DNA of 64,000 bases, taken from the NCBI GenBank assembly GCA_964592195.1, contig CAZQEI010000003.1, positions 20,174 through 84,173 on the forward strand, written 5' to 3'. Made by a program: the position numbers and the translations under genes. The stretch comes from an uncultured Gammaproteobacteria bacterium. Its GTDB lineage: Bacteria > Patescibacteriota > Patescibacteriia > UBA11705. Shown in pieces: positions 36,779 through 63,976 of the stretch. Below the pieces are notes generated by a model. That model was not told where the DNA came from, did not search any database, and was given only the letters and a program-made list of their open reading frames with translations. The first letter of the stretch is position 1; every line of letters begins with the position of its first letter.

Positions 36779-37870
36779 CTATTTAACCAACCACTGATAC
36801 AAATTCTCATATTCTTTGATCAGTAAATTGATATCAAATTTTTCATGCACCCGGGATTGTAATTTCACTGCCATTTTCTGAGCTTCGTCGCGATGGGTAA
36901 AAATCCAATTCATAATATTCACCAAACTTTCAAGGTCATTCGGCTCAAACATTCTACCGTTAACGCCATCGGTAATAATTTCCGGCACACCACCGACTCG
37001 AGAAGCAACAACAAACTTCCCCAAGGCAGCGGCTTCAATCACTGACAATCCCATGCCTTCACTGCGACTAGCAAGAACAAAGACATCAGACTTTTCCAAG
37101 TATTCTCGAATATCGGGAATAAAACCGGTGAATAAAATCTTTTCTTCCATTTTCTGTTGCGTGACCATCTCTTGCAACTTCGAACGTTCCGATCCATCAC
37201 CGACTAAATACAATTGCCAATCATCACGTTTCAAATACTTACAAGCGCGAACTAACGTTCTATGATTTTTCAATGGTACCAAGCGACCGACAGAACAGAA
37301 AGTCACTTTATCATGACGTAAAATTGGTGGCGCTTCCTTACTGAATTTCGACATATCAATACCATTGTAGATTACGGTAATTTTTTCCCCCGGATACTTA
37401 TTGAACTTCACCAAAAAATCACGGCTGGCATTCGAAATCGCCACGATACGGGAATAAAATTTTCGCACTTGACCCAACAATATTTTTTTAATAAACGGAT
37501 CCGGTAAAACATCATGTTTAGTTCCAATAATAACCGGCACTTTTGCCAACTTAGCGGCCCAGCCACCCCAGAACTCGCCACCGAATAAATGCAAGTGAAC
37601 AATATCGGGTTTTTCCTGTTTAAAAAATTGTTTCAAGCGACGAACCACAGTCCAATCACCTTTGAAATGTTTGGAAATAACGGTCACTTTAATCTCCGCC
37701 ACGTTAAAATCACGCACCAGCTTGCCACCGCGACCGATGGTGACCACTTGAAAATCAAATTTGGATTTATCAATCTTGCGACCCAAATCCAAAAGCAACC
37801 GCTCAGCACCGCCGTAGTTTAATTCACTGATAACATGAATAATTTTTATTTTTTTGGACATAAAATTCAA
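36779..37870 (-). CDS. GT4-family glycosyltransferase
   Basis: SEGMGLSVIEAAALGKFVVASRVGGVPEII; overlaps next gene upstream by 4 nt. Confidence 0.8.
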   Translation of the reverse strand: MNFMSKKIKIIHVISELNYGGAERLLLDLGRKIDKSKFDFQVVTIGRGGKLVRDFNVAEIKVTVISKHFKGDWTVVRRLKQFFKQEKPDIVHLHLFGGEFWGGWAAKLAKVPVIIGTKHDVLPDPFIKKILLGQVRKFYSRIVAISNASRDFLVKFNKYPGEKITVIYNGIDMSKFSKEAPPILRHDKVTFCSVGRLVPLKNHRTLVRACKYLKRDDWQLYLVGDGSERSKLQEMVTQQKMEEKILFTGFIPDIREYLEKSDVFVLASRSEGMGLSVIEAAALGKFVVASRVGGVPEIITDGVNGRMFEPNDLESLVNIMNWIFTHRDEAQKMAVKLQSRVHEKFDINLLIKEYENLYQWLVK

Positions 37871-38889
37871 TCGTAATAATGTTCAGTTTGACTAAAGGCA
37901 AAAGCATTAACTATAAGATGAAAATCATCTGAATTAACTGTCGCAATTGTTATATGCCTATGATTACCGTTTTGTGAACCAAGTAATGTTGCTAATTCCG
38001 ACTCACTTTTAGTTTGCCCGGGAAGCCCGATCAAAGACCGAGAACAGACGCCATTAAGATAGATTGGTTGATAATCATTATTCATGTATGTTAACAAAAA
38101 ATCATAATACATTTCCACGAAGGTCGGACAAAATTTCTGAAAAGGAACCAACTTCATAAGTTCATCTAAAGGAACTTCCTCATCTTTCCGTTTCCAGATA
38201 TTAAATTTACGACAACATTGAGCCAATTGAAGTTCAGGTATGTCTTTAAGACCGACAGATTCTATATATTCAATATAATCATAGAATGCCTTTAATGTCA
38301 CATCCGAATCATCTTCTTCTTTGATAGATGAATTGTCAGGTCGTATCAATGCCCACCTTGAAGAAAATACTTCTGATGAAAACACCGGATCAAGTAGATC
38401 TATTGAATTCGCATTATGTTGTTCTAATTCAAACGAACCTGATATCATATTTAAACGATTATCAACTATTCTTTTCAACAGACCGGCATTCATTTTGTGT
38501 GCGTGTTTTTCCGGCGTCCAACGAAGCACTAACAAATGCCCCAAGTCTTTGGCTTTTTTCAATTCTGAATCAGAAAAAGGAATTGGTGGAATTTCATGCT
38601 CGGGAATTTCAAATCCAAACGCTTTTGTGACCGACTCAGGTCCAAAGAAACTCTCTTTTCCCATTATTTCAAGAGCTCTATCCATTTGGACTTCAACATT
38701 GCTTAATGTTTTTTCTTTTAATGGAGATAATCGTTCCAACTGTCCCAGTATTTCTTTCACTTGTTCTGGTGACGGCGGGTTGCCTTTATTACTCTTAACA
38801 ATATCATGCAGACGACTCGAAACTTCCGCGTAGGTATGAGCTACGGGTGAATCAGTTGATAAAGTTAAGTTTTGTATATTTTCCGGCAT
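37867..38889 (-). CDS. family-A paralog 1 (shared N-module + variable body), function unknown
   Basis: MPENIQNLTLSTDSPVAHTYAEVSSRLHDIVKSNKGNPPSPEQVKEILGQLERL then unique body. Confidence 0.75.
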   Translation of the reverse strand: MPENIQNLTLSTDSPVAHTYAEVSSRLHDIVKSNKGNPPSPEQVKEILGQLERLSPLKEKTLSNVEVQMDRALEIMGKESFFGPESVTKAFGFEIPEHEIPPIPFSDSELKKAKDLGHLLVLRWTPEKHAHKMNAGLLKRIVDNRLNMISGSFELEQHNANSIDLLDPVFSSEVFSSRWALIRPDNSSIKEEDDSDVTLKAFYDYIEYIESVGLKDIPELQLAQCCRKFNIWKRKDEEVPLDELMKLVPFQKFCPTFVEMYYDFLLTYMNNDYQPIYLNGVCSRSLIGLPGQTKSESELATLLGSQNGNHRHITIATVNSDDFHLIVNAFAFSQTEHYYD

Positions 38890-38896
38890 AAATATT

Positions 38897-39868
38897 TTAA
38901 TATCTATTGACCACCAATTTTATATTATGGCTATCACATGTCAACATATCTGTTTTCTCAAAAACAGAAAGAATCTTTTCATAATGTCCCAAAGTTCTAT
39001 TTTCACGAAGATATAGACAAGCGGCTTTTTGAGTACCTGATGGACCCTCTCTCCTACTTGTTCTGGTTAATATAGTTCCCAATTTCATTTTATCTCCCAG
39101 CAGTACCGCGTCATAAACCACCTCATTCAAAGTGGGTAAAAAATCTTGAATAACAGGCACATTCAAAAAATTTGATTGCCATAAAAATCCCGGGGTCTTA
39201 AAATACTCTTTCGTATCTTCAAAAGACGCCTTAACCTCTCTGGCGGGTACATACTTTGAGAACTGATCTCGAAACCAATCCATTAAATCAGGATAATTCG
39301 TTTTGTCTACAGTATCAATATATTGTCCATAGGGGCCACAAAGTGCCCAACCAAGACGAACAGCCTCATTTACTCCACTAGAACGGACATAATCTACCAT
39401 ATCATTAATATTTGCGCCGGTGCCTACTTTGAATCTACTAATCCAGACCAAACACAATTTATTTATATCTAACCATTTACGATCTGGTGTAATGTCCCAA
39501 CGTAAAATTAAACTGAGTCCTTGTTTTTTGGCCTTCATTAATTCCTTCTCTGAAAAATTTATAGTCGGTATCTGATCCACAGGCACATCAAAACCAAAAA
39601 CTTTTCTAATAGCTTCAGTTCCATAAAAGTTTTCTTCTCCCATAATATCTCGAGCATCATCCATCTCCACAGCACCTACAAATGGCGCTTCATCATCGAA
39701 ACTATCCAACCCTTCCAATTGTTTTAACATAAACTTCACCTGTTCCGGTGACGGTGGTTTACCATTGTTGCTCTTCACAATTTCATGCAACCGACTCGAT
39801 ACTTCCGCGTAGGTGTGAGCTACGGGTGAATTGTCGGGTAAAGTTAAGTTTTGGATATTTTCTGGCAT
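38897..39868 (-). CDS. family-A paralog 2
   Basis: same N-module; body shares FGF(D/E)(V/I)P...IP(T/P)I(N/P)FSE.EL..AK, GWALCGPY blocks with paralog 3. Confidence 0.75.
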   Translation of the reverse strand: MPENIQNLTLPDNSPVAHTYAEVSSRLHEIVKSNNGKPPSPEQVKFMLKQLEGLDSFDDEAPFVGAVEMDDARDIMGEENFYGTEAIRKVFGFDVPVDQIPTINFSEKELMKAKKQGLSLILRWDITPDRKWLDINKLCLVWISRFKVGTGANINDMVDYVRSSGVNEAVRLGWALCGPYGQYIDTVDKTNYPDLMDWFRDQFSKYVPAREVKASFEDTKEYFKTPGFLWQSNFLNVPVIQDFLPTLNEVVYDAVLLGDKMKLGTILTRTSRREGPSGTQKAACLYLRENRTLGHYEKILSVFEKTDMLTCDSHNIKLVVNRY

Positions 39869-39876
39869 GTGTTTTA

Positions 39877-40848
39877 TTAGTTACAATATCTATTAATCAC
39901 CATCTTTACATTATGACTGCCACAAGAAAGCATATTCGATTCATTGAAGACTGATAGTCTCATTGTTACGTTACCCGAATTTCTTTGTTCACGAATATTA
40001 AGGCAGGATATCTGTTGAACACTTCCCAAATCGCTATGACTATTTGTCCTAGTTAAAAAAGTTCTTCTGCTCATAAATGGTCCCAGTAATACAGCGTCAT
40101 AAAGAACTTCAGACAAACTAGGAAGGAAATTATTTAGTATTGGCAAACTTATTAGGTCAGCTTTATGCGTATAACCAGGGTGTTGATCTAAAAATTGATT
40201 AGCAGCTACACGCGCTTTATATATATCCGTTTGTGGAACAAAAACATTAATTTTCTCATTAAACCAATCCAGTAATGCCGGGAAGGAACTAAAATCACTC
40301 ATATCAATACTATCTACATATGGGCCGCAGAGCGCCCAGCCAGTGCGCGGGGCTCTTTCACTTAGTGCCACTGCAGAACTGCTCATTAATTGGATGTCTG
40401 TTTTAACCGGAAATCTCGTTTTCCAAACCGCTTGCAATCTATCAATATCTAAAGCCTCTCCCTCTGGTATTTCTCCCACACGTAAAATCAAACTAAACCC
40501 CAACTCTTTTGCATATATTAATTCCTGTTCTGAAAAATTTATCGCTGGGATATTTTTTTTGGGAATATCACTTTTGAATGCATATTTAATTTCTTTTGGT
40601 CCTAAAAAATGACCTTCACCCATAATCTCTAGAGCACGTCCCATTGTTACATTGCCAATAACCTCTTTACCCATATTGTTAATAGGCAACCGCCCCAACT
40701 GCGCCAACATTTCTTTCACCTGCTCCGCTGACGGTGGTTTACCATTGTTGCTTTTAACAATTTCATGCAATCGACTCGAAACTTCCGCGTAGGTGTGAGC
40801 TACGGGTAAATCAGTTGGTAAGGTTAATTTTGAGATATTTTCCGGCAT
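39877..40848 (-). CDS. family-A paralog 3
   Basis: same N-module. Confidence 0.75.
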   Translation of the reverse strand: MPENISKLTLPTDLPVAHTYAEVSSRLHEIVKSNNGKPPSAEQVKEMLAQLGRLPINNMGKEVIGNVTMGRALEIMGEGHFLGPKEIKYAFKSDIPKKNIPAINFSEQELIYAKELGFSLILRVGEIPEGEALDIDRLQAVWKTRFPVKTDIQLMSSSAVALSERAPRTGWALCGPYVDSIDMSDFSSFPALLDWFNEKINVFVPQTDIYKARVAANQFLDQHPGYTHKADLISLPILNNFLPSLSEVLYDAVLLGPFMSRRTFLTRTNSHSDLGSVQQISCLNIREQRNSGNVTMRLSVFNESNMLSCGSHNVKMVINRYCN

Positions 40849-40854
40849 ATTGAG

Positions 40855-41820
40855 CTACACTCTGACGTTACCAAATTTATTAATTGATAAAAATACTTTA
40901 TGCATAGAAAAACTATCTAAAGAAGGTAAAATATCATAATTTAACACCCTAGGTTGTGTTAACTGTTGAGAATTATCGTCTTTAAAGTCACAAACATAAG
41001 GATAAACAGTTGTTCCCATTGTTTTATTGAAAAAGAATGAACTGGTCATCAAATTATTAGAAGTTTTTCTAGATGCCGGCAACACCGCTTTATCATATAT
41101 AACTTCAACAAGTCTAGGCACAAATCTTCTAAGAACAGGATAGTCCATAATCAAAGGTCCATTTTCTTGTGTAAACAACTGGTTGCTAACATCCAAATCA
41201 AATTTTTCCAGTTCCTCAAGTTTAAGATCACCTAACATCTCAACAAACCATTTATAAAACTCGCGATTATTATCAGTATCAGGGACAGGAATTGGTTCTC
41301 CGCACAAAGCCCAACCACGCCGAGGAGTTGCAACATAATTATATTTATCTTGAAGACTGCTAATCAAATCATCGACTTGGTATTGAGAAGTTAGAAAGCG
41401 AAAAAGATAACGTAAGTTGATAAAACTCATTGATCCATCAGACTGAGTCGCTATATCCCACCTTAAAATTAAATACTGGCCCTTCTCCTTTGCCAATCGC
41501 AATTCTTCCGTAGAAAACGGGATGGGAGGAATTTGGTCATTTGATATTTCAATTCCTAAAGTCTTTTTAATCTCAGCCGGACCGAAAAAATTTTCATTCC
41601 CAATTACCTCTCGAGCCAGTCTCAAACTCATTTCTTTTTCACTATCTCCCGTAGAGGTCAAACGCTCCAATTGTTTTAACATAAACTTCACCTGTTCCGG
41701 TGACGGTGGTTTACCATTATTTCCCTTAACAATATCATGCAAGAGACTCGAAACTTCCGCGTAGGTGTGAGCTACGGGTGAATTGTCAGGTAAAGTTAAA
41801 TATGATTCACTTCTTGGCAT
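40855..41820 (-). CDS. family-A paralog 4
   Basis: N-module MPRSESYLTLPDNSPVAHTYAEVSSLLHDIVKGNNGKPPSPEQVKFMLKQLERL. Confidence 0.75.
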   Translation of the reverse strand: MPRSESYLTLPDNSPVAHTYAEVSSLLHDIVKGNNGKPPSPEQVKFMLKQLERLTSTGDSEKEMSLRLAREVIGNENFFGPAEIKKTLGIEISNDQIPPIPFSTEELRLAKEKGQYLILRWDIATQSDGSMSFINLRYLFRFLTSQYQVDDLISSLQDKYNYVATPRRGWALCGEPIPVPDTDNNREFYKWFVEMLGDLKLEELEKFDLDVSNQLFTQENGPLIMDYPVLRRFVPRLVEVIYDKAVLPASRKTSNNLMTSSFFFNKTMGTTVYPYVCDFKDDNSQQLTQPRVLNYDILPSLDSFSMHKVFLSINKFGNVRV

Positions 41821-41821: not shown

Positions 41822-43219
41822 TTAAATAAAACGTTCCACGGATTTGGGATGATAAATTCTTAATCCTGCCAAAACAACTCCCAGCGGTATCCACATTCTC
41901 GGTAAATAGTATGAGGTAGAAAATAACTCAAAGAAAATTATTCCCACTGTTAACATTATCAAACACAAAATATAATATCTTTCTTGTTCACGAAACGCCT
42001 GGAAATAGGCACGGACTAAACTGGTTATAATATAGATTAATAAACCGCAGAAACTAATTAAACCTAAAATACCTTGTTCAACAATTAACTTTTGCACAAA
42101 ACCATGAGAATCCAGAGGATCGCCAAAATCCACCACGTAAACAAACGTTGCCCCAATAATATTCATAAACGATCCGACACCATTACCAATAATCGGATGT
42201 TCTAGAAAAGCGTTCCAAGCAATCTCGGACAACGCCAAACGGTTAACATTGGAACTTTGCACGAAGTCAATATTTTGCCAAACAGAGAAATATATAGTTA
42301 ATGGAATCGCAATAATTAAAACCAAGGTACTCCAAAAAACTTTTGGTTTAATTCTTTTTTTCAACCAAAACACCGAAAATATTATTATCTCCAATAACAA
42401 AGCTAAATATCCAGAACGTGATAAAGTTAACAATAGAATTAACAACAAAAATATAATAGACAACAACCACCAACCTTGACCGCGATAGGAATGCGTTTGA
42501 GGTAATAAAAATAAAATTAAAGGTAACGTCACAACAATAATTTCCGCCACCGCATTTTGATTGCCACCCACTGGTTCAAAACCAGAGAAGTTGAATGGCA
42601 CCGCGCGCCCAATAAACGATTGATTATTACTAAATAAAACAGAAAGTGCACCTAAAAATCCAACTATCAAACCCGTTACAATCATTATTTTCAAAACCCG
42701 TTTAAATTGATCAGAGGTTTTTATTAGATTAAAAGGTAAATACACAAACATTAAATAGAAAAAAGCTAATGGACGTAGTAAATACTTAATGGCTAAACCA
42801 ATAAATTCAGCATTGAACATGGACAATAAACCGGACAACAAAAAAGCCACAATAAATAATACCCCTGGGAAATCTTTTAACCGCGGTTTCGCCGTCTTCC
42901 AGTTAACCATGGTTTTAACTATAAACCCAACCAATACTAGGATAGCCATCAAATCCACATAAGGCACATTCACTGATCCCCAAACAAATTGCCAACCAAT
43001 ATAGGGATACAAGAAAATCATTAAATAAAAAAGCCACTGATTCAAAAATATCCCAGCGGCCACGCCAATAATTACAACGTTAATAAAACCCAACAATTTC
43101 CAATCAATCAAATTGACGGCAATTAAATTGAATAAAACCAAAACAAACAACGAAGACAATAACCACTTGGCTGATAGCTCTGCCAGTTTTTCTTTATGCC
43201 AAAAATTGAGTAAATTCAT
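41822..43219 (-). CDS. O-antigen ligase / O-oligosaccharyltransferase family (Wzy_C) membrane protein
   Basis: ~12 TM; periplasmic loop NRLALSEIAWNAFLEHPIIGNGVGSF and HGFVQKLIVEQGILGL resemble Wzy_C motifs. Confidence 0.65.
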   Translation of the reverse strand: MNLLNFWHKEKLAELSAKWLLSSLFVLVLFNLIAVNLIDWKLLGFINVVIIGVAAGIFLNQWLFYLMIFLYPYIGWQFVWGSVNVPYVDLMAILVLVGFIVKTMVNWKTAKPRLKDFPGVLFIVAFLLSGLLSMFNAEFIGLAIKYLLRPLAFFYLMFVYLPFNLIKTSDQFKRVLKIMIVTGLIVGFLGALSVLFSNNQSFIGRAVPFNFSGFEPVGGNQNAVAEIIVVTLPLILFLLPQTHSYRGQGWWLLSIIFLLLILLLTLSRSGYLALLLEIIIFSVFWLKKRIKPKVFWSTLVLIIAIPLTIYFSVWQNIDFVQSSNVNRLALSEIAWNAFLEHPIIGNGVGSFMNIIGATFVYVVDFGDPLDSHGFVQKLIVEQGILGLISFCGLLIYIITSLVRAYFQAFREQERYYILCLIMLTVGIIFFELFSTSYYLPRMWIPLGVVLAGLRIYHPKSVERFI

Positions 43220-47457: not shown

Positions 47458-47889
47458 CTAACCAATTCGCTCCCAACTTTCCACATTACCTCTAACAACA
47501 ATAAACAACGGATGTGGTTCAACTTTGTTTGTTAATTTAATTTCTTCAAACTGAACAGAATTTCTGTCTTTCAATTTTGTTAATAAATGTTGCCATTCGA
47601 AATCAATCTGTCCGCTTGTAACAGGAATTTGACTTATTAATTTATTATCAGCAAATTTACTTTGGTCAAACTTATATCGCCGACGAACACTTTCTTCAAA
47701 GATTACCGACAAATAATTATCAATAAAATAAACAGGATCATCCATTTTTTTAAATCGAATTAACTGCGGATGATTTTTATAACCAATAGTGTTGCCCAAT
47801 AAAACTTTTTTCGCCAACAAAGCCTCTCGCCAAACAGCGACTAAACCGGCGGGATCTAAATATTTTGGATGCAGACTCCACAATCTCAT
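47458..47889 (-). CDS. pyrimidine-dimer DNA glycosylase-like (T4 endonuclease V / Pyr_excise family)
   Basis: N-terminal MRLWSLHPKYLDPAGLVAVWREALLAKKV parallels T4 endoV [26 protein letters not shown]. Confidence 0.5.
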   Translation of the reverse strand: MRLWSLHPKYLDPAGLVAVWREALLAKKVLLGNTIGYKNHPQLIRFKKMDDPVYFIDNYLSVIFEESVRRRYKFDQSKFADNKLISQIPVTSGQIDFEWQHLLTKLKDRNSVQFEEIKLTNKVEPHPLFIVVRGNVESWERIG

Positions 47890-52974: not shown

Positions 52975-52976
52975 AC

Positions 52977-54530: not shown

Positions 54531-54532
54531 AA

Positions 54533-56098
54533 TTATATTTTAATTTCACGAACAATTATTTTTGCATACCCTTTATTTTTTTCTTTACCAATAAAATAGT
54601 ATTTATCATTTACAAAAACCACTTTCAAAATATCATTCGACTGATATTGCGTCGGCTGACCATCGATCCATAGAGACGACACCCTATGTTTCCCGGGATT
54701 TAATTTTTTATTTTCAGCTTTGGGAATTTTATGCGCCCAAAACATATGGTCATTGACACTAGCCGAATAAGTAATTTCACCTGCTGGAAAATCTTGCGGC
54801 TCACCATCGACCCACAAAGTTATTTTTTCTCCATCAACGGTCAAAAAAAACACTTTACCGGTATGCCCCATCACAGTTCTTTCATCTTCAAAAGCAAATA
54901 TTTCTCCACATGGTTTATCTGTGGGACTGCCGAGTTTAACTTTTCCTAAATTGTGTAAATAGTAAAAAAATCCTTTACCAGGAAGATACCCGGTATAGAC
55001 CACTTGCCCATTAACCATCCTAAAATCCACAAAATCACTATTCCTGGGAATTTTACGATTTTTTTCATTTAGAATTTCAATATGTGTACCGTCAAAATGA
55101 AACAATAAAACACCATTTTGTGAACTATTTCTCCAACCTTTAGTTTTAATAGTAAAACACACATCCTTGCCATTCACAATAACATTTGAAGGCACAGCGA
55201 CTTCTGAAACATGAAAATTAAAATACGTAAAATTTATATTTCCAAAATTTTCGATCGATACCTTTGAATTTTCAACTTGAATACAAAAATGTTCACCTGA
55301 CTTTCCATACTTAAATGGAATACTTACATTTTCACCTCGTACGTTTTGTTTTTCCCCTCTACCAAGTACATTATAACCAGCCTCATCCTTACCTTTTTTG
55401 TACTGTCCACTCCAAGTCAAAGTATTATCCTTTTCCATTACAAAAGTATAATCAGTCAACCACTCTGTTATAGGCTCCTTGTTCAAATTTATTGCACGGG
55501 CTGTCAACTGCGCATCACCATTGACTGTTTGTTCCAATAAAGCACATAGATTGCCATCATCATCAGTCATTAATTCATATCTTTTATAATCAGAAGCTTC
55601 ACCTTTAAACAATATTTCCTCACCATTCAAATTTACAAATCTAGATGGATTCTCATCTGAAGCGTGAAAAACATCAAACTTTACTCCAAGCTGACCATTC
55701 AATTTAAACGTTTCTATAGGGAAATCGGGCAAAGGTTCTTTATTTATCATCTCGCCTGACAAGCGGCAAACATCCATGCCTTGTTTATCTTGTCTTGGAA
55801 GAGTGAACAAAACTTGATCACCAATCAAATGCACATCGCTTGATTTTACTTTGTTTAATTTATATCCAGGTAATTCCAAATCTTTTTCACAAAGTTCATT
55901 TTTATCCGGCGCCAATTCGACCGCCATGCCTTCAACTTCTTTTAACAAATCCACCACATATCTCGGATCATGGGCGCTAAGTCCGGCGGCTTTTCTTTTG
56001 GCCACCAATTCGCGCAAACGTTCTGAACGCTCGGCGTAATTTAAAGCTTTATCTTTGTCGTTCGGGTCAAGGGTTAATTTTTGTTCATTGAAAGGCAT
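54533..56098 (-). CDS. family-B paralog 5
   Basis: same module. Confidence 0.8.
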   Translation of the reverse strand: MPFNEQKLTLDPNDKDKALNYAERSERLRELVAKRKAAGLSAHDPRYVVDLLKEVEGMAVELAPDKNELCEKDLELPGYKLNKVKSSDVHLIGDQVLFTLPRQDKQGMDVCRLSGEMINKEPLPDFPIETFKLNGQLGVKFDVFHASDENPSRFVNLNGEEILFKGEASDYKRYELMTDDDGNLCALLEQTVNGDAQLTARAINLNKEPITEWLTDYTFVMEKDNTLTWSGQYKKGKDEAGYNVLGRGEKQNVRGENVSIPFKYGKSGEHFCIQVENSKVSIENFGNINFTYFNFHVSEVAVPSNVIVNGKDVCFTIKTKGWRNSSQNGVLLFHFDGTHIEILNEKNRKIPRNSDFVDFRMVNGQVVYTGYLPGKGFFYYLHNLGKVKLGSPTDKPCGEIFAFEDERTVMGHTGKVFFLTVDGEKITLWVDGEPQDFPAGEITYSASVNDHMFWAHKIPKAENKKLNPGKHRVSSLWIDGQPTQYQSNDILKVVFVNDKYYFIGKEKNKGYAKIIVREIKI

Positions 56099-56101
56099 AA
56101 A

Positions 56102-57661
56102 TTAAACTACTATTTCTTTTATCACTAATTTCGTACCCACCAAACCAATCATGAAATATTTATTTTCCGTATAAATAAACTTTAAAATTTTATCAGCACA
56201 ATACTTGGTTTTCTGACCATCGAGCCAAACATACTCTGTTTTATCTTGTACTTTCTTTTTATCAGGCTCTTTCTCAATAAATTCCCGAAAGCCCCAGAAT
56301 AAATGATCCTTGAGGACTATTTTGTTAGAGAAGACACCGAAAGGCAACACCACAGATTGATTTTCTATCCAAAATTGATAATCACCTTCATCTTTATGAC
56401 TACCAAAGAAAAATACTTCACCGGTTTTGCCCAAAACATTCACCGGTTTAGAAGTTTTCAAAATATTCTCTTCACTTTGATCCAGATCAAGCCCGGCTTT
56501 AAAGACTTCAAAAGGTTCAGGCAAACCATCTATATGAATATATTCTTTGTCAGTATCAATTGAAAGGTAATGAACCATCAAACGATTATTCACCATGGTA
56601 AACCCATTCATCACGCAGTTTTCCGGTCCAGTCACTTCCTTAATAGTTTGTCCATCAAATTTAAATAACTTCTCTCCTTGCTCCAATGAATCAGGCATAT
56701 GAATAGTGGCGGTAAAATATCCGACATCATTTCCTGCAACCACTTTTTTTATATTAATAACATTTGATCGCTCTAATCCCAACCATGGTGTGCCAATTTC
56801 TTTACCGGCATCATTGACTAAAGATAATTTCGCCACTTTGGCTTTTGATTTCTTTCGGTATTTTTCTTTCGCTTCTATAAAACAAAACTTACCATTATAT
56901 TTAAATGGTAGACTAACCATCCCCTCCATAAACGCCCTCTCTCCATCATGAGAAATATAGCCGCAAATATTATCTCGATTATATTCTCCTTGATAAGTAA
57001 TATAGCCTGGCTCCACTTGATACTGGAACTGCTCTATAAAAGCCGTCAATTCTTCATTATTCAAATCATTTATAGTACTAAAACTAAAACCATCTTCATC
57101 ATCTACATGATCGACGACAAAATAACGTAAGTCACCATTTTCATCTGCCAACGGATCAATAATTTGCGACCTTGAGAATTTATCGAACTCAATCTGTTTG
57201 CCTTGTGAATTTATATACTTAACGTCACCATCGTTTCGGCTACGAACTTTAAAACATGTTTGTCCCCCCCAACGAAAGGGTTTGGCAGAAACATCTGAAC
57301 ATTGAAACTTTACAATGCCCTCATTATCAATATTAACAATATCCTCTGATCCAATATTATGTCTAACTTTAATAAATAATTCTCCATTTAATAACCCGAT
57401 ATCCTCCCCCAAGATTCTTTGAGCAGTAAAATCGTTAATCTCAATTTCTGTTTCAAAAACTTTTGGTTCTTTGGGCTCCAAATCTTTATTCAACCCTTCC
57501 ACTTCCCGCAACAAATCTGCCACATAATTTGGATCACGAGCGCTAAGACCAGCGGCTTTTCTTTTGGCCACCAATTCACGCAAACGTTCTGAACGTTCAG
57601 CGTAATTTAATCCTTGCTCTTTATCTGCCGGATCAAGAGTTAATTGTATTTTTTCACCCAT
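56102..57661 (-). CDS. family-B paralog 6
   Basis: ORF 56102..57670; family-consistent start is MGEKIQLTLDP (57661), 1 nt after upstream stop. Confidence 0.8.
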   Translation of the reverse strand: MGEKIQLTLDPADKEQGLNYAERSERLRELVAKRKAAGLSARDPNYVADLLREVEGLNKDLEPKEPKVFETEIEINDFTAQRILGEDIGLLNGELFIKVRHNIGSEDIVNIDNEGIVKFQCSDVSAKPFRWGGQTCFKVRSRNDGDVKYINSQGKQIEFDKFSRSQIIDPLADENGDLRYFVVDHVDDEDGFSFSTINDLNNEELTAFIEQFQYQVEPGYITYQGEYNRDNICGYISHDGERAFMEGMVSLPFKYNGKFCFIEAKEKYRKKSKAKVAKLSLVNDAGKEIGTPWLGLERSNVINIKKVVAGNDVGYFTATIHMPDSLEQGEKLFKFDGQTIKEVTGPENCVMNGFTMVNNRLMVHYLSIDTDKEYIHIDGLPEPFEVFKAGLDLDQSEENILKTSKPVNVLGKTGEVFFFGSHKDEGDYQFWIENQSVVLPFGVFSNKIVLKDHLFWGFREFIEKEPDKKKVQDKTEYVWLDGQKTKYCADKILKFIYTENKYFMIGLVGTKLVIKEIVV

Positions 57662-57662
57662 A

Positions 57663-59234
57663 TTAAACATCCAATGCTTTGACTATTAATTTATTATAAA
57701 GCACCGCCACCACAAAATATTTATTATTTGAATAAACCACTTTTAATATTTTATCATATTTTCCTTTCATTTGCTTGCCATCCATATACAATTTTTCACC
57801 GCCAAAATCCAACTGGTCATTCCAAAACAGATGATCATTTACCACGCAAAACATATTGCAAGTCAAAGCGCTATCTTTCTCCAGATCAATCGGAGAGTTA
57901 TCAACAAACAGTGTTTCTCTATTTTCCAGATTCCTCGCCATATAGAAAATTGATCCTTGCTGGCCAAAAATTTCAATTGGTTTGCTGGTAGTATAGATTT
58001 GATGAAACTCAACCATGCCAACTGGAGCATGTTCGCCAACAATGGCGTTCACTGTTTGTTCGCCCAGGCCATCAATTACAATTTTTCGTTTCCTTTTACC
58101 ATCCACATGAACATACGCAACCACCGATAACCGACCTCCGATTTCATGCAAATTCATTGAACGTGCTTCTGTTATTCGAGTAGGTTCAAATTTACCAAAT
58201 TTAAACATGTAAGCATTCGGATACCCAGGATCACCCAACGAATCCCTACACACCACTTTCACTAAACACTTATCTCCCGAGGCGACCACCTGACTGATAG
58301 AACTGATCTCATCATGTAAAGGCTGAGCCAGAGTAACAGCTTCTTTGGTTTGAATATCTCTTATAACTATTTGGTCTGCCCCATCAATACTCTTGTGGCA
58401 ACAAACGCAAACCTTACCATTAAACAGAAAAGGTGCGCTTAACTTCTGTTCATTATGTGTTTCTATTCTATCATCACCCCAAACAGCTGATTGACCATCA
58501 GTAAAATTTAAACCATTATTCGCCAAATATGCCCACTTTCCTTCTAACACAACGGAATTACGAAGTTCTATTTCTTCGTTCGTCACAGCCTCACCATTCA
58601 AGTTGAAAATTTGTCCGGATTGATTACCAATCTCATTAATCGTTTTTACTTTATTAAAACCTAAAATATCTTTGTCATTTTCCAGCACCTCCTCGATAAA
58701 GTCACCGGCGCCGGCCTTTAAATTTTCATCTCCGATAAATTCTCCATGATGGTTGATAAAAGCATCAATCATTTCACCTTCTGAATCATAATAACGCAAT
58801 TTGAAACATATTTTCCCCTGATAAAAAATCGGTTTATCTATACCAGTAATACCGTAATTTTTTAATGCGGGATGGGGGTTTATTGGTTTGCCGTCAATAT
58901 TTAATAAATGAGCAGATTCGCCATCTTTAGATTGGACACGAACAAACAGTTCGTCTTGTTGACAAAATACGCTGTTAATATTTAGTTCCGCTTGATTGTA
59001 TTCGCTTAAATCAAAACTCGTTTCATGCACCAGCTCCAATAGGTTAATCGAAGAAATATTCATAGCCGCCACTTCTCGTAATAAAGAAGCAACGTAAGCC
59101 GGATCCTTTGCATCCAAGCCAGAAGCCTTTCTTTCTTTTACCAACTCACGCAAACGTTCAGAACGATCAGCATAATTCAAAGACTGTTCTTTATTGTTTG
59201 GATCGAGGGTTAATTTTCGTTCTGTAAAAGGCAT
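57663..59234 (-). CDS. family-B paralog 7
   Basis: same module. Confidence 0.8.
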   Translation of the reverse strand: MPFTERKLTLDPNNKEQSLNYADRSERLRELVKERKASGLDAKDPAYVASLLREVAAMNISSINLLELVHETSFDLSEYNQAELNINSVFCQQDELFVRVQSKDGESAHLLNIDGKPINPHPALKNYGITGIDKPIFYQGKICFKLRYYDSEGEMIDAFINHHGEFIGDENLKAGAGDFIEEVLENDKDILGFNKVKTINEIGNQSGQIFNLNGEAVTNEEIELRNSVVLEGKWAYLANNGLNFTDGQSAVWGDDRIETHNEQKLSAPFLFNGKVCVCCHKSIDGADQIVIRDIQTKEAVTLAQPLHDEISSISQVVASGDKCLVKVVCRDSLGDPGYPNAYMFKFGKFEPTRITEARSMNLHEIGGRLSVVAYVHVDGKRKRKIVIDGLGEQTVNAIVGEHAPVGMVEFHQIYTTSKPIEIFGQQGSIFYMARNLENRETLFVDNSPIDLEKDSALTCNMFCVVNDHLFWNDQLDFGGEKLYMDGKQMKGKYDKILKVVYSNNKYFVVAVLYNKLIVKALDV

Positions 59235-59236
59235 AG

Positions 59237-60802
59237 TTAAAAAGTAATTTCACGCACCACTAACTGTTCACCCTCTCTCGCAACCACATAATAAATCCCA
59301 TTTTCTTCCACCACTTTCAGAATATAATCAAACTCATATTTCGATTTCACGCCGTCAATATATAAAGATGTTCTACTTCTTGTTCTGTCATCAATCCAAC
59401 TGGACTGACCATGAAACAATACATCATTAACAATATCAAAATAGGTAAAGTGTGGACCTCTCTTAGTCTCTCCCAAGGAAACTTTTTCATTATCAATCAC
59501 TAAGAACGGTTCAAAGCGACCTTCGTCAATGTAAAATACTTGCCCTGTTTTTCCCAAGACAGTTTTTGGTTTTTGGGTGCTTAAAATTTTACTCAACGCC
59601 AATTTCTCACTTCTAATCGGTGTCCCCATGCCGATGGAAACAGAGTATCCCACCACAGTATTTTTACCATTGCGTTCCTGTCTTAATTCCTTTGTTTGGA
59701 TTAATTTACCAGCCGTAACTTGAATATCAGCTAATATTGTATCCTTATTATCAGGAATAACTGATATAGTGTCGGTAAGAACATCCGCAACAGTGATAGC
59801 TCTCCGACCATTTAAATCAGACGCAATCATATATATTTTCGAATCGACCACGCTAATTGAATTGACATCCTTAAGTCTATAAGCATTAATACACTTGGCT
59901 AAAGTTTCTTTGGTAACTAAATCAATAATCTCAAAAGTCCCGCCTTTATCAAAATCATAGTGCCACTTTGCCACCACCACTTTATCTTGGACAACAAACG
60001 GATGACTCATGTTGCCTGCTTTTAATTCCTGATTTGACAGGGAAATTTTATTATCTCCCCAGACTGCTACTTTTTCTGGAGATCCACTTTGGGTATAACC
60101 CGTATAAGCTAATTGATCTTTTATCACTTCCCATTTTTCCAAGGCTAAAAATTCTGTAGTTATTGGTCGATGATTCAAATCATAAATTTTTCCCACGCGA
60201 TGCGAGCTATCAATCTCCGTAGCCTCGCCTAAATATCGCAGTTCGTTTTTCTCATCCAATACAGGTAATAAAATCATTTTATCACTACCTTTGGATGGCA
60301 AACCAAGGCTTTCACCATTTTCATCGACAATTTCCTCTAGAACTTCACCCTGCTTATTTTCATATTTGAACCGAAAAGCAATCTTACCATTGTAAAAAAA
60401 CGGCTTTTTGAATCTCGGATCATAGCTAGTATTTAAATGTTGTTTATTTACCACTTTTCGATCAATGTCAATCAGATCAACCACACTATGTCGACCATTC
60501 GGATGCAAGCCGAAAAATAACTTCCCGCCAACCAGATGGGCATCATAGTCCCGTAAGTCATAAGGACTATAGCCGTCGAGATCAATCGTTGCTTCTCGAA
60601 TGAACTGAGGTTTTTCCGCTTCAGTTCCGCTGAAATTTTCCAATTCATGAAGCACCTCTGCCACATGTCTCGGATCGCGGGCACTAAGACCGGCGGCTTT
60701 CTGTCTAGCCACCATGTCACGCAACCGCTCAGACATCTCAGCGTAATTGAGTGAACGCTGTGTGTCTCGAGGATCAATGGTTAAATTTATATTTTCTCCC
60801 AT
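59237..60802 (-). CDS. family-B paralog 8
   Basis: MGENINLTIDPRDTQRSLNYAEMSERLRDMVARQKAAGLSARDPRHV. Confidence 0.8.
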   Translation of the reverse strand: MGENINLTIDPRDTQRSLNYAEMSERLRDMVARQKAAGLSARDPRHVAEVLHELENFSGTEAEKPQFIREATIDLDGYSPYDLRDYDAHLVGGKLFFGLHPNGRHSVVDLIDIDRKVVNKQHLNTSYDPRFKKPFFYNGKIAFRFKYENKQGEVLEEIVDENGESLGLPSKGSDKMILLPVLDEKNELRYLGEATEIDSSHRVGKIYDLNHRPITTEFLALEKWEVIKDQLAYTGYTQSGSPEKVAVWGDNKISLSNQELKAGNMSHPFVVQDKVVVAKWHYDFDKGGTFEIIDLVTKETLAKCINAYRLKDVNSISVVDSKIYMIASDLNGRRAITVADVLTDTISVIPDNKDTILADIQVTAGKLIQTKELRQERNGKNTVVGYSVSIGMGTPIRSEKLALSKILSTQKPKTVLGKTGQVFYIDEGRFEPFLVIDNEKVSLGETKRGPHFTYFDIVNDVLFHGQSSWIDDRTRSRTSLYIDGVKSKYEFDYILKVVEENGIYYVVAREGEQLVVREITF

Positions 60803-60835
60803 ATTTAATCAATTGAAATATCTCCGCCTAAGGCG

Positions 60836-60872
60836 CCTGCCTGCCGGCAGGCAGGGATCAGCCTCCGGCTGA
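60836..60872. repeat. composite GC palindrome CCTGCCTGCCGGCAGGCAGG + GATCAGCCTCCGGCTGA
   Basis: only >10-nt spacer inside the family-B array; same modules at 29586-29612, 25352-25398, 3737-3768. Confidence 0.7.
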
Positions 60873-62351
60873 AAATGTGCCGAAATATCCGTTTCTTTTA
60901 CCCAACATTAAATATTTCCCATCTTGAAAAACCACACTTTTTATATCATCGCAAAAATACTGAGTTCTCACACCATCCACATACAAATAGCAATCTTTTT
61001 CACCATTCAAAGTCTCACCCCAGATTACGTGGTTATTTAGCGTTAAGAAAAAAGAAACTTCCCCATCCGGCAATAACCGAGGTTCATTATCCACCCACAA
61101 AGTATTTTTCGATTCATTATTGGTTAAATAAAATATTTGACCGGTAGCACCTAAAACAGTAATTGGATTATCCACAGAATAAATACACTCATCCCCAATA
61201 AAATTTCTAGCTGCCATCCGAGACTTCCCTCCAATGCTGACTTTAGCTGTATCCCTATCAGGACCAAACCAATCTTGTTGAACCACCACTAATTTACCCG
61301 CCACGACATCAAAGTAATCAATGCTTGACTCGCTACATTCAAAATCCAACTTGGAAATATTACTACCATCATAACAATATATCATTGGCTGATCACCACG
61401 ACCATCAGCGCCAGCTCCTGCCCAAATATAAATTTTGTCACCATACACAACCGTCTTTCTAATTTCAGTTATTTTTGGTAACTGTAACGCGATATTATCA
61501 CTCAAAACTTTCTCAGATCGCATGTTAACCAAAGCAATCCCAGTGGCATTATTATCTGGGTTAAAAAAACTACGACAAACCACGGGTTGACTTTGATAAT
61601 AAAAGGGTAAACCAAATTTATAATATTTAACATCAGCCGTCACTTGAGAGTTTCCTAATCGCGCCACCCACAATTCTCCCCAGACACCATGATAAGCCAG
61701 GACTCCATCCACCAACTTGGCTTCTTTCACCATATCAACCGTACTTGAAGCTAGTTGCCCATCCAACTCCAAGACTTCCCCCGCATAGCCACCACCATTT
61801 GGTTGAACATCATTTTTAAAGACATATTTTATTACGCCATTTTCATCTTTTAAAAAATCCAAGAATCGATATCTTTCATCTGATTTTACCTCAGGTAATA
61901 TTTTATCACCGTTTTCATCAATCAAATAGCTACCACTTTTCCCACCAGCGACCACGCTATAACACACATGAAAATCATGCAAACCTACTGTTTCAAACGG
62001 TAATATACTATTTTCTTTGTTCAGTCTTTTTCCCTCAGCATCTAATAAAACATAGGATTTATCCACAAAACTTCTCCCAGAGATGAATAATTTACCCGCA
62101 ACAACCTTGGCTTTATTAAAAACAAAACCATCACTTTCAATTATATTTTTCATGGCTGGTCCTTGGGGAATTAAATAGTCCAATTTGGAAACCTCGTCCA
62201 ACAATTTTTTCACATATGCCGGATTATTTCGCCCTTTACCCTTATTTTCCGCCACTATTTCACGTAAACGCTCAGAAGTATCAACAAAACTTCCAGGTTC
62301 TTTTTCATCCTTCTTATCAAACGTTAAATTAAATTTTACACCTTCTCCCAT
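60858..62351 (-). CDS. family-B paralog 9 (divergent N-module)
   Basis: MGEGVKFNLTFDKKDEK...TSERLREIVAENKGKG; C-terminus LYVDGVRTQYFCDDIKSVVFQDGKY. Confidence 0.75.
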   Translation of the reverse strand: MGEGVKFNLTFDKKDEKEPGSFVDTSERLREIVAENKGKGRNNPAYVKKLLDEVSKLDYLIPQGPAMKNIIESDGFVFNKAKVVAGKLFISGRSFVDKSYVLLDAEGKRLNKENSILPFETVGLHDFHVCYSVVAGGKSGSYLIDENGDKILPEVKSDERYRFLDFLKDENGVIKYVFKNDVQPNGGGYAGEVLELDGQLASSTVDMVKEAKLVDGVLAYHGVWGELWVARLGNSQVTADVKYYKFGLPFYYQSQPVVCRSFFNPDNNATGIALVNMRSEKVLSDNIALQLPKITEIRKTVVYGDKIYIWAGAGADGRGDQPMIYCYDGSNISKLDFECSESSIDYFDVVAGKLVVVQQDWFGPDRDTAKVSIGGKSRMAARNFIGDECIYSVDNPITVLGATGQIFYLTNNESKNTLWVDNEPRLLPDGEVSFFLTLNNHVIWGETLNGEKDCYLYVDGVRTQYFCDDIKSVVFQDGKYLMLGKRNGYFGTFSAGG

Positions 62352-62356
62352 ATTAT

Positions 62357-63976
62357 TTATATTTTAATCTCACGCACGACCATATCCGTGCCATTTACTG
62401 CCACCACAAAATATTTACCTTCGTGAAAGACCACTTTGAGGATTTTATCATACACATATATAGATGGCGTTCCGTCTATCACCAAACGCGACTCTTCCTT
62501 TCTAAATTTGCCACTTCCCACTACTTTGTAATGATTCCAAAACAACACATCATTGGCAATATCAAACATCGTTATCTGTCCATTAAGCACTACATCACCT
62601 AACAAAATCGGGTCATCATCAACCATCAACCATACATTCCCCATATCAATACCAATATGAAATATTTGCCCCACCGACCCAAGCACTTCCTTGGGTTTAT
62701 CGGTGGCAAGAACTTTTGCTCCAATAATTTTATCAGACTGAAGTTCTGTCTTCCCGTCAATTTGGACACCATATCTGGGAGGTAAACCGCCATCCCGAGA
62801 ATACCGAATAAAATAGACCATCTCTCCGGCAATTTTTTGAATATCGGAAACCTCAGTCTTCTCATCTTTTAACATCAAATGATGACTTTTTTGGCCTTCG
62901 ATTATCAATACCATTTTTTGTCCATCTCTGGTCACATGTACATATACCTTATCATCCACTACTTCATATTTATGAATTTCCGTAATGGAAGATTTCTCAC
63001 TGTCATTGTCATGCAATACTTCACTGGTTTCAATATCTATTACTTGGGTATTCCCCATGTCAAAACTTTGATCAAAACCGGTTCTAATAAAACATTTTCT
63101 GCCGTTCCACAAAAAGACGCCACTGAAAACCAGTTGATCTAATTTATTCAATTCATCGGATGATGAATATTTGTGCGAACCGCAAACTACCTGTATATTT
63201 CCAGCCGTATCTTCCGATAGATAACTAAGTTGACCATCAACTATACGTGAAAAGGTGATATGCTGGTTACTATCAGTTACTGGGTTACCGTCAGGAGTAA
63301 ATAACTGACCATAATCTTTTCCGCCTTCAGAAACTAACGAGGTCCCGCAACAAACCAAATTTCTTTTATCATCGAGAACTTTCAATAGCACTTTAAAGTC
63401 ATCATTACTATTTGGCAATCCGACGTCTTTACCTTTTTCATTTACAAACAGACTAGCAACACCATCGTGTTTATCGACATAACCAAACTGAAAAATTAAT
63501 TGATTTTTATAATAAAATGGTCGCCTGCCAAATCCGAAGCCAACACTATGGCATGGATATTTATTAATACTCTCACCGGAAATGTTTTTTAGAGTATGTT
63601 CGTTCATGCCTGTATCACGCAAATCAAAAAACAGTTTTCCATCCATAAATTCAACGCAAGATTCATTGATACCACTGACCTCATAATCTGAAATATCAAA
63701 AGTTGAGTCTCGAATTATATTATCCTCTGCCCCAGATTCCAAACATTCAGCGGTTCGATTGACCAATAACAAAGCCAGACTAACATCTTCAGGCGTAAAT
63801 CTACCCTTGGATTTTATTTGCAGTGATAGCTCATGCAATTGCTCGAAGTTGTCAACTAAACTTCGTCCGGTTTCACGATCGCCTGCCATTAACTTTCCAG
63901 AGGCACTATTAAAACTACCGGCAGATTTTTGATCCTCGTTTCCTGATGCTAAATTAAACTGACCGCCTTCTCCCAT
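62357..63976 (-). CDS. family-B paralog 10 (most divergent N-terminus)
   Basis: MGEGGQFNL...; C-terminus LVIDGTPSIYVYDKILKVVFHEGKYFVVAVNGTDMVVREIKI. Confidence 0.75.
   Translation of the reverse strand: MGEGGQFNLASGNEDQKSAGSFNSASGKLMAGDRETGRSLVDNFEQLHELSLQIKSKGRFTPEDVSLALLLVNRTAECLESGAEDNIIRDSTFDISDYEVSGINESCVEFMDGKLFFDLRDTGMNEHTLKNISGESINKYPCHSVGFGFGRRPFYYKNQLIFQFGYVDKHDGVASLFVNEKGKDVGLPNSNDDFKVLLKVLDDKRNLVCCGTSLVSEGGKDYGQLFTPDGNPVTDSNQHITFSRIVDGQLSYLSEDTAGNIQVVCGSHKYSSSDELNKLDQLVFSGVFLWNGRKCFIRTGFDQSFDMGNTQVIDIETSEVLHDNDSEKSSITEIHKYEVVDDKVYVHVTRDGQKMVLIIEGQKSHHLMLKDEKTEVSDIQKIAGEMVYFIRYSRDGGLPPRYGVQIDGKTELQSDKIIGAKVLATDKPKEVLGSVGQIFHIGIDMGNVWLMVDDDPILLGDVVLNGQITMFDIANDVLFWNHYKVVGSGKFRKEESRLVIDGTPSIYVYDKILKVVFHEGKYFVVAVNGTDMVVREIKI

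Follow-up and report, generated by a model that had tools for sequence, protein, structure and literature searches.

What could lead a member of the Patescibacteria, whose genomes are very small, to give more than 21 kb of one contig (15 genes) to a single orphan protein family, and what is the short N-terminal segment that these otherwise dissimilar proteins have in common? The DNA analysed here (the window, 64,000 nt of a 126,086-bp contig) is part of a Patescibacteria chromosome and consists almost entirely of one tightly packed minus-strand gene run, in which the genes surrounding the family are chromosomal housekeeping genes. Such an investment by so small a genome argues that the family matters to the lifestyle of the organism, and may bear on host recognition and manipulation by Patescibacteria episymbionts. 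An initial annotation, made from the sequence, saw in this family interchangeable bodies joined to one common handle, and offered polymorphic toxins, phage tail fibres and protein O-glycosylation as parallels.

Two tandem arrays and their shared N-terminal module

The fourteen ORFs in two arrays that the initial annotation described are all present, each on the minus strand. Four of them (37867-41820, 321-340 aa) form family A, and ten (48261-63976, 497-539 aa) form family B.

A1, 37867..38889, minus strand: 340 aa; N-module (residues ~1-55), linker, A-type body
A1 helices, residues 17-33 and 41-52: AF2 prediction, low confidence
A2, 38897..39868, minus strand: 323 aa; N-module and A-type body
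A3, 39877..40848, minus strand: 323 aa; N-module and A-type body
A4, 40855..41820, minus strand: 321 aa; N-module and A-type body
Wzy_C (O-antigen ligase family) membrane protein, 41822..43219, minus strand: context, E 2e-16; directly upstream of array A
DUF1294 membrane protein, 47886..48254, minus strand: context, 6 nt downstream of B1
B1, 48261..49835, minus strand: 524 aa; N-module, linker, all-beta propeller-like body (predicted)
B2, 49838..51412, minus strand: 524 aa
B3, 51415..52974, minus strand: 519 aa
B4, 52977..54530, minus strand: 517 aa
B5, 54533..56098, minus strand: 521 aa
B6, 56102..57661, minus strand: 519 aa counted from the MGEK start (database model P0005)
B7, 57663..59234, minus strand: 523 aa
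B8, 59237..60802, minus strand: 521 aa
B9, 60858..62351, minus strand: 497 aa; module diverged but clear (leave-out E 6e-14)
B10, 62357..63976, minus strand: 539 aa; degenerate module, clear B-type body
P0021, 3′ end (…KEIKV, stop), 63981..64000, minus strand: 11th B paralog, 526 aa, extends past the window

Consecutive paralogs abut at gaps of 2-8 nt (55 nt between B8 and B9 being the exception), with no small ORFs interleaved between them, and an alternative ATG for B6 at 57670 would create an 8-nt overlap with B7. The arrays span 3,933 nt (A) and 15,642 nt (B), that is about 19.6 kb, which agrees with the ~20 kb first estimated, and are separated by a 6.4-kb spacer that includes a PD-(D/E)XK gene and an orphan gene. 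While array A sits between the Wzy_C gene (1-nt gap to A4) and two GT4 genes (4-nt overlap), array B is not adjacent to glycosylation genes. There are no partner, secretion system or chaperone genes within the window, and no phage genes nearby. The view of array B as ten genes ending at 63976 is right for the window, but the array goes on, since the 11th copy follows on the same contig.

The module, ~55 residues long and common to both families, is clear in 13 of the 14 proteins and degenerate in B10 (~20-residue insertion; leave-out profile E only 0.05), so that the early statement that one block opens every member stands for all except this last one. The motifs quoted for it are found in the sequences. 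A conserved LTL motif at the tip precedes helix 1 (YAE-x-S-x-RL-[HR]-E-[LI]-V), which a short loop connects to helix 2; the latter terminates in EG[ML]. Homology between the A and B modules, which the initial annotation had put forward as refutable by profile-profile statistics, survives that comparison (hhalign Prob 96%, E 4.2e-9, 50 columns). With a leave-out profile of B1-B8, the matches to A1-A3 stand at about 1e-6 per comparison, while the one to A4 is weak (0.0045). The A profile in turn matches most of the B members with values of 1e-4 to 1e-8, with weaker matches (6e-4 to 4e-3) to B1, B2 and B6. When run over the six-frame ORFs of the window, the module HMM picks up these 14 ORFs and no others.

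The module also occurs on a third body type, short and repeat-containing, in P0022 and P0023, which are encoded on a 20.7-kb NCBI contig; the known modules are thus 17 (A1-A4, B1-B10, P0021, P0022 and P0023). When 1.84 billion representative proteins were searched with a profile, no further credible bearers emerged, and four candidates (P0016, P0017, P0019 and P0020) were rejected, their matches being internal repeats of long repetitive proteins. Homologue searches with B3 and A2 returned same-contig paralogs only, and a search with the 17-module profile a single Logan fragment of B9. No match to the A/third-type module pattern came from a scan of genome contigs, which places this genome outside the GTDB species representatives, and no relatives from two scans of metagenome contigs or a scan of viral contigs. 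The family is lineage-restricted and has been seen so far in one organism only.

Bodies, array evolution and cell location

As first described, the A-type and B-type bodies are unrelated past the module (hhalign Prob 0.1%) and also diverge within each family, identity to the first member being 25-39% in B and 31-37% in A. The B body (AF2, pLDDT 81, about 38 strands) is predicted to adopt a large all-beta, beta-propeller-like repeat fold, a beta-propeller being defined by 4-stranded blades set in a toroid. Weak Foldseek matches include staphylococcal phage receptor-binding proteins with a propeller platform (TM about 0.2). The A body would be of an alpha/beta type, and its AF2 model is poor (pLDDT 49). 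The module itself is modelled, with a confidence of only about 60, as a disordered tip followed by helix, loop, helix and flexible linker, and in both models (A and B) a low-pLDDT linker joins it to the body. The family is made of modular proteins, in which a ~55-residue N-terminal unit and a flexible linker precede a body that belongs to one of three or more unrelated types. The notion of a common handle on interchangeable bodies is supported by the homology across bodies, the third body type and the low-confidence linker.

What keeps the module alike while the bodies diverge? In family B, amino-acid identity is 0.5-0.66 in the module versus about 0.2 in the body, and codon identity at identical residues is about 0.5 in both. 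Since synonymous sites are no more conserved in the module than in the body, constraint acts on the protein rather than on DNA or RNA, and recent gene conversion was rejected as the source of module conservation in B on the same grounds (codon identity at identical residues equals that of the body). In family A, codon identity over the first 40 codons is 0.74-0.82 versus 0.22-0.68 in the body, where most values are about 0.4, and recent gene conversion may have acted on these 40 codons. Within the arrays, neighbouring copies are the most alike pairs, DNA repeats at gene junctions are just 63-86% identical, and a B9 allele with a nonsense mutation at codon 35 is found in a Logan assembly (independent read set). 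The arrays expanded via tandem duplication and diverged via birth and death, with the module held under strong protein-level constraint and the body surfaces drifting. Also rejected were a Shine-Dalgarno sequence inside the conserved C-terminal 'REIK' codons (no AGGAGG-like motif at junctions), and an excess inside array B of promoters (77 found versus 66±7 expected) or of terminators (13 versus 11.4±2.6).

The claim that no member has a signal peptide or TM helix also holds (19-residue Kyte-Doolittle hydropathy nowhere exceeds 1.3 in any of them), and the Cys content of the family (1.1-1.3% versus 0-0.3% in two exported neighbours) is cytoplasm-like. Together with the small helix-loop-helix fold predicted by AF2 and a neighbourhood in which secretion genes were not found, this would fit an alternative account, a purely intracellular oligomerisation or hub domain in the form of a hairpin that would dimerise into a four-helix bundle or dock on a protease or scaffold, turning proteins that are never exported into bivalent or tethered binders acting inside the symbiont. 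Two points speak against this account, which we hold to be less likely than the docking handle proposed below: at least 11 propeller receptors for the organism's own proteins would seem excessive for a very small proteome, and the fast divergence of body surfaces resembles conflict or host adaptation.

Named families and alternative functions

The module matches no credible entry in Pfam, NCBIfam or PDB profile searches, in keeping with the initial annotation, which recognised no named family in it. With whole proteins, no Pfam family was matched by more than one member (best E 0.005) and NCBIfam gave no match for the family; isolated modules matched three unrelated Pfam families, each with one of the 17 modules (E ≥0.11). 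As far as its sequence tells, the module is a previously undescribed two-helix unit.

Two identities nevertheless deserved scrutiny, both of which would make the module a diverged DNA-binding or other known small domain (ribbon-helix-helix, or ParB box-I-like) and the proteins regulators with sensor bodies. The order of a strand-like LTL, a helix, a G-x-S loop and a second helix recalls the ribbon-helix-helix, one module of 17 matches RelB (E 0.15), and the PDB profile search matches a ParB family protein at its N-terminus (E 0.007). However, hhalign against a hand-typed alignment of ribbon-helix-helix sequences (the CopG/Arc/MetJ class) gives Prob 0.1-1.6%, and the strand-to-loop distance is 26-28 residues in the module versus about 16 in CopG, about 10 residues longer. 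The ParB/Srx match is a box-I-like stretch of 33 residues only (domain i-E-value 0.038), with the rest of the ~90-residue fold missing and a helix and linker replacing the beta2/GxxR (box II) region. No Pfam match is consistent across the 17 modules. Both identities were rejected, and a diverged DNA-binding or other known small domain is very unlikely.

Tandem genes whose products keep their N-terminus and vary in their C-terminal parts would also suit polymorphic-toxin cassettes, or phage tail-fibre/receptor-binding proteins sharing a trafficking or anchor domain, and the propeller platform among the weak Foldseek matches could be added on this side. Polymorphic toxin systems are recognised by a C-terminal toxin domain, then a cognate immunity gene, together with a trafficking domain at the N-terminus that belongs to a known secretion route; here neither toxin nor immunity domains were found, small genes do not lie between the paralogs, and the B body is predicted to be a propeller-like repeat scaffold. 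As for phages, whose tail fibres and receptor-binding proteins are recognised by neighbouring phage structural genes or by homology to phage proteins, no phage domain was found, the only PHROG match below 0.01 is an isolated weak one (B7 to phrog_35019, of unknown function, E 9e-4; others ≥0.036), tblastn gave no match in 50,697 phage genomes, and the neighbours are housekeeping genes. Neither of these two parallels drawn by the initial annotation gains support, and the combined scenario is highly improbable.

Least probable of all is that the module is an acceptor peptide which the neighbouring Wzy_C/OTase-family protein and GT4 enzymes would O-glycosylate, in spite of the position of array A between their genes and of a Ser in a Pro/Ala-rich loop of A1-A4, B1-B6 and B8. 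This Ser, which had been taken as conserved, is replaced by Asp in B7 and missing from B9, B10, P0021, P0022 and P0023 (5 of 17 modules), and in the 17-module alignment the strongest conservation lies in the helices rather than the loop. The gene adjacency is real, but its weight as evidence is reduced by the fact that nearly the whole window is one packed minus-strand run, and array B lies away from glycosylation genes. Wzy_C-type ligases and OTases are active at the outer face of the membrane, whereas the family has no Sec or Tat signal. PglL/PilO-type acceptors are exported proteins that carry a conserved Ser/Thr within an Ala/Pro region of low complexity, a description that the family does not fit, given the missing export signal and the absence of the loop Ser from 5 of 17 modules.

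More credible, although still quite unlikely, is a cytoplasmic immunity or sensor repertoire in which the bodies would bind incoming toxins or phage proteins and the module would link each body to one shared effector, along the lines of immunity-gene arrays or of the domains that act as sensors in NLR/Avs-type defence proteins. Tandem arrays of diversified binding scaffolds without export signals fit this scheme, as do the PD-(D/E)XK and orphan genes in the spacer. On the other hand, PADLOC matches none of the members, NTPase and effector domains as well as toxin genes are absent, and we know of no immunity proteins that share an N-terminal handle.

A putative docking handle and its closest known counterparts

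The reading that we consider best, and hold tentatively, is that the module acts as an autonomous handle that docks on a single common, slowly evolving partner. One machine would in this way be equipped with a whole set of diversified binding domains, and these proteins would make up a host-directed repertoire of binders or effectors. This reading is favoured by the homology of the module across unrelated bodies, including the third type, by the helix-loop-helix and linker architecture, by the protein-level constraint and the birth-and-death pattern, and by the lack of a signal peptide or TM helix and the cytoplasm-like Cys content, and it would suit helix 1, in which the conserved polar residues (read from the alignment) exceed the needs of a two-helix core. 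Since the organism is a genome-reduced episymbiont and the bodies look like ligand-binding scaffolds rather than enzymes, their targets would most likely be foreign (host) molecules, and a host-directed role is probable. The partner could be an export or host-contact apparatus, or a chaperone of that apparatus. There are precedents both in Patescibacteria, where tandem arrays of 2-11 diversified VirB2 genes are tied to host interaction (PMC12102498), and in other obligate symbionts, where large effector families share an N-terminal adaptor domain (PMC4209131). Against this reading stand a window that encodes no partner, secretion system or chaperone, the occurrence of the family in one organism only, and the low confidence of the AF2 models for the module and for A. 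Moreover, the known export signals of monoderms do not include, for folded effectors, short helical hairpins at the N-terminus, and those of the T4SS usually lie at the C-terminus. The sequence data suit a purely intracellular role equally well.

A bolder version of the docking handle, which we regard as unlikely, is that the module is a new recognition signal by which a diversified set of binders lacking a signal peptide (propeller, repeat and alpha/beta bodies) would be delivered to or into the host via one dedicated export or host-contact machine. If true, the Candidate Phyla Radiation would thereby have its first recognisable effector family and, in the module, its first 'address tag' for effectors. 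Should the module be a docking or export handle, it would offer direct bait for the partner machine and a sequence tag for finding cargo.

Which known systems come closest? In the F-box and DCAF (H-box) receptors of cullin-RING ligases, the docking module is likewise short (~40-50 aa), helical and N-terminal, and is combined with interchangeable bodies, typically beta-propellers, LRRs or 'other', and DCAFs join an N-terminal helix-loop-helix to a propeller. Unlike these, the present module (isolated modules included) matches no F-box, BTB, SOCS or U-box Pfam model up to E 10, an F-box being recognised by a family HMM match and the LPxE[IL]L motif, it has no known Skp1/DDB1-like partner, and the hosts of Patescibacteria are usually prokaryotes. 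RIIa/DPY-30, a eukaryotic family with no sequence match to the module, is a ~40-50-residue N-terminal helix-turn-helix found on unrelated proteins, which dimerises and docks on the amphipathic helix of a scaffold. The expansions of bacterial F-box/BTB proteins in Parachlamydiaceae are, as here, large birth-and-death families of an obligate symbiont (Domman et al., 2014, PMC4209131).

Type VII secretion substrates (mycobacterial PE/PPE, WXG100/LXG) share with the family an N-terminal helix-turn-helix hairpin, variable C-terminal parts and multi-copy lineage-specific expansions. They are defined by a helical hairpin of ~100-200 aa, a WxG turn or YxxxD/E motif and a family HMM match, whereas the module is half the size (~55 aa), has no WxG or rightly placed YxxxD/E (Y+4 is Ser, not Asp/Glu), matches no Pfam model of this group and was rejected as one of them; no EssC-type ATPase is in view at the locus. 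In Salmonella, SspH1, SspH2, SlrP, SifA and SseJ reportedly share a conserved N-terminal translocation domain on unrelated bodies (some LRR) that serves one secretion machine, as Miao and Miller are said to have described in 2000; that domain is ~140 aa long, belongs to the T3SS of a diderm and has no detected homology to the module. [quoted passage not shown] The design of a shared N-terminal docking unit on varied bodies is thus already known, and it is the module and the family that are new.

Modular architecture of families A and B

The module-bearing genes are arranged as two arrays of paralogs (ORF listing):

37867-38889, 38897-39868, 39877-40848 and 40855-41820 (-): family A, four consecutive ORFs (A1-A4), 321-340 aa
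48261-63976 (-): family B, ten ORFs (B1-B10), 497-539 aa

Identity to the first member, in within-family alignments, is 31-37% in A and 25-39% in B, which makes the members paralogs, and the best-conserved block in both families alike is formed by the first ~55 residues. The initial annotation had taken this block for a common handle fused to interchangeable bodies, a view that the profile comparisons bear out, since the A and B N-terminal blocks are homologous (hhalign Prob 96%, E 4.2e-9, 50 columns) and the A and B bodies unrelated (Prob 0.1%). With a leave-out HMM from B1-B8, E per comparison was about 1e-6 for A1-A3 and a weak 0.0045 for A4; with its counterpart from A, it was 1e-4 to 1e-8 for most B members and weaker (6e-4 to 4e-3) for B1, B2 and B6. 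Over all six-frame ORFs of the window, the module HMM found precisely the 14 array ORFs, so that the original count of fourteen stands, except that the B10 module is degenerate (~20-residue insertion, leave-out E just 0.05). Similarly, the B array does comprise ten genes at 48261-63976 but continues beyond the window: an 11th copy, P0021, lies on the same 126,086-bp contig, and its 3' end fills the last 20 bases of the window. That one contig carries at least 15 genes of a single family, taking up more than 21 kb, is striking in a streamlined genome.

The idea of interchangeable bodies is strengthened by two further proteins, P0022 (250 aa) and P0023 (195 aa), which bear a clear module (MEKSLAIDLSQSAQQTYAEGSLRLHELVVEKNGKLDPEGVKKALKIVEGM…) on a third body that is unrelated to the A and B bodies, has no Pfam match and, on reading of its sequence, appears to have a leucine-rich-repeat-like periodicity. 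Each lies on a 20,765-bp NCBI contig, presumably one and the same. The architecture is modular, and three unrelated bodies share a module that is mobile between them.

AlphaFold2 on the B alignment gave a confident model (pLDDT 81):

Residues 1-16: disordered tip with the conserved E-x-x-LTLD motif
Residues 17-36: helix containing LNYAERSERLRELV
Between the helices: loop AAGLSARDP
Residues 44-57: helix containing YVADLLREVEGM
Residues 58-63: linker, low confidence
After the linker: all-beta body of about 38 strands

The predicted, propeller-like fold of the B body is of the binding-scaffold type. For A the model is poor (pLDDT 49) but has the same helix-loop-helix (17-33 and 41-52), then a disordered linker. 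The sole confidently modelled part of the A body, residues ~66-125 (A2: window 39494-39673; pLDDT 71-85), is conserved (…MGEENFFGPEEIKKAFGFEIP.DQIPPIPFSE.EL.KAKELG..LILRW…) and unmatched in Pfam and PDB sequences; a short 'FFGP' stretch of P0022 aligns weakly with it (hhalign Prob 5%).

In family B the module reaches an amino-acid identity of 0.5-0.66 and the body about 0.2, with codon identity at identical residues equal in both (about 0.5); what is constrained is therefore the protein, not DNA or RNA, and gene conversion is not the cause. In family A, codon identity is 0.74-0.82 over the first 40 codons versus 0.22-0.68 (mostly about 0.4) in the body, likely reflecting some recent homogenisation or later duplication. 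The module is under protein-level constraint and is joined by a flexible tether.

Known families and distribution

No named family accounts for the module. Whole A and B proteins are unmatched in Pfam, and isolated modules, screened up to E 10, match no Pfam family consistently; NCBIfam and PADLOC gave no family match, PHROGs gave a single weak and isolated one (B7, E 9e-4, family of unknown function), and the only PDB sequences to match were designed helical proteins and, over 33 residues resembling ParB box I, a ParB family protein (E 0.007). A ribbon-helix-helix (RHH) fold, suggested by the strand/helix/G-x-S/helix order, was rejected (hhalign Prob 0.1-1.6% against an alignment of hand-entered RHH sequences; wrong spacing). 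The module therefore stays outside named families, as first proposed, and the chance that it is a diverged DNA-binding domain is small. Two analogies drawn in the initial annotation fared no better, toxin trafficking finding no support in the Pfam and PADLOC searches and tail-fibre anchoring none in PHROGs, IMG/VR or tblastn against phage genomes. Toxin or phage readings keep a slight residual probability.

In a search of 1.84 billion cluster representatives, which stand for about 15 billion proteins, the module profile recovered 12 of the 14 window proteins, a fragment (P0018) and, as further credible bearers, P0021, P0022 and P0023. B4 is absent, presumably being represented by a paralog in a shared 50% cluster. 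The remaining matches, internal repeats of long repetitive proteins, were discounted on reading the sequences. No relatives were found by word-indexed protein searches, by scans of species-representative genomes, JGI metagenomes and IMG/VR, or by tblastn against phage genomes; the family is therefore recorded from one organism or population. It seems confined to one organism, with a putative role and a postulated partner.

P0018, whose sequence is that of the B9 start, comes from a Logan assembly contig of SRR12261225. This contig agrees with window 61563-62674 in 1111/1112 bases (99.9%), the sole difference (G->T at 62249, GAA->TAA) placing a stop at B9 codon 35. The stop is either a read error or a true nonsense allele of the population, and the latter would agree with gene birth and death.

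Genomic setting of the arrays

The window is bacterial chromosome, with hrcA-grpE-dnaK-dnaJ, mreB, murJ, ackA, a pduL-type PTA, and genes for RRF, Dus, a class II aaRS, TspO, TerC, an HD-domain protein and a flavodoxin-like protein. DnaK shares 76% identity with its counterpart in a Candidatus Falkowbacteria MAG, and its best matches are all Patescibacteria MAGs, several recorded as 'uncultured Gammaproteobacteria' yet ranked amid CPR genomes. Next to acetate kinase, a PduL-type phosphate propanoyltransferase (PF06130) takes the place of a classical Pta (6931-8623, -), and the window has no microcompartment shell genes.

Both arrays look like long co-oriented gene runs. Adjacent genes are 2-8 nt apart (with a single 55-nt gap, before B9), no Shine-Dalgarno-like motif occurs at the 2-nt junctions, no excess of promoter- or terminator-like sites was found, and junction repeats are just 63-86% identical, long identical tracts being absent. 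The start of B6 is ambiguous between ATG 57670 (MFNMGEK…), with an 8-nt overlap with B7, and ATG 57661 (MGEK…), which agrees with the start in the other members of the family and in the gene model P0005 of the database. GC skew is -0.25 to -0.32 in the B array (48000-64000) versus about -0.03 to -0.26 in the remaining window, an effect, we presume, of Glu/Asp/Gly/Lys-rich propeller-like proteins coded on the minus strand.

The neighbours of the arrays are as follows:

Flanking A: Wzy_C membrane protein (1-nt gap)
Flanking A: two GT4 glycosyltransferases (4-nt overlap)
After B: DUF1294 and pyrimidine-dimer glycosylase

Since nearly all window genes are on the minus strand with minimal spacing, such adjacency is weak evidence of functional linkage. 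Glycosylation of the module, originally suggested by a 'conserved Ser' in its Pro/Ala loop, has lost ground and retains little probability: this Ser is missing in 5 of the 17 modules, the B array lies away from the glycosylation genes, and the proteins lack an export signal that would take them to the outer side of the membrane, where Wzy_C-family enzymes act. Indeed, as first reported, none of the proteins is hydrophobic enough over any stretch to hold a signal peptide or TM helix. Cys content is cytoplasm-like (1.1-1.3%; housekeeping proteins 0.94%, two exported neighbours 0-0.3%). A purely cytoplasmic oligomerisation or hub role, first among the rival readings, is somewhat unlikely, and a cytoplasmic immunity or sensor repertoire, the second, quite unlikely.

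Three other regions stand out:

43523-45904 (-): single-gene island between the arrays, about 64% GC amid 31-39% GC, edges coinciding with the ORF
46179-46673 (+): orphan 164-aa ORF on the opposite strand, with an internal duplication (…WHSLFYNMTPFEIV…WAPEGYF and …WHVLFRNKSFLDVI…WAPPDFF)
21000-22800: raised GC (0.43-0.47), plus-strand ORFs 21090-21719 and 21861-22676

The island, which has no phage match, appears to have come in recently by horizontal transfer from a high-GC organism; its 793-aa product has a lipoprotein-type signal (…LALAGC), many Cys-rich repeats, a Dicty_CTDC match (8e-9) and a weak Myxo_Cys_RPT match. The orphan ORF belongs to no Pfam, NCBIfam, PHROGs or PADLOC family. The third region, whose scanned long ORFs on both strands have no Pfam match, may be another foreign insert because its genes oppose the prevailing minus-strand orientation.

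Proposed function and known designs

We infer that the module could be a docking handle for one common partner, with the bodies as interchangeable recognition domains diversifying by birth and death. The handle would address an export or contact machine, and the proteins would form a host-directed binder/effector repertoire. Among the nearest design analogies are (i) F-box and DCAF substrate receptors, (ii) PE/PPE proteins and (iii) effector families with an N-terminal translocation domain in common, such as Salmonella SspH/SlrP/Sif. The first group includes the F-box/BTB expansions of Parachlamydiaceae, for which a heterologous type III secretion assay is reported to suggest effector action (PMC4209131). 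[quoted passage not shown] Because of these analogous designs and Patescibacteria reports, the host-directed repertoire is the reading that we tentatively favour; that the module is an effector address tag in CPR is unlikely. The orphan family that the arrays encode is real and well delimited, and its N-terminal module is new. The family varies a known design principle in a new way and is not a new kind of system.
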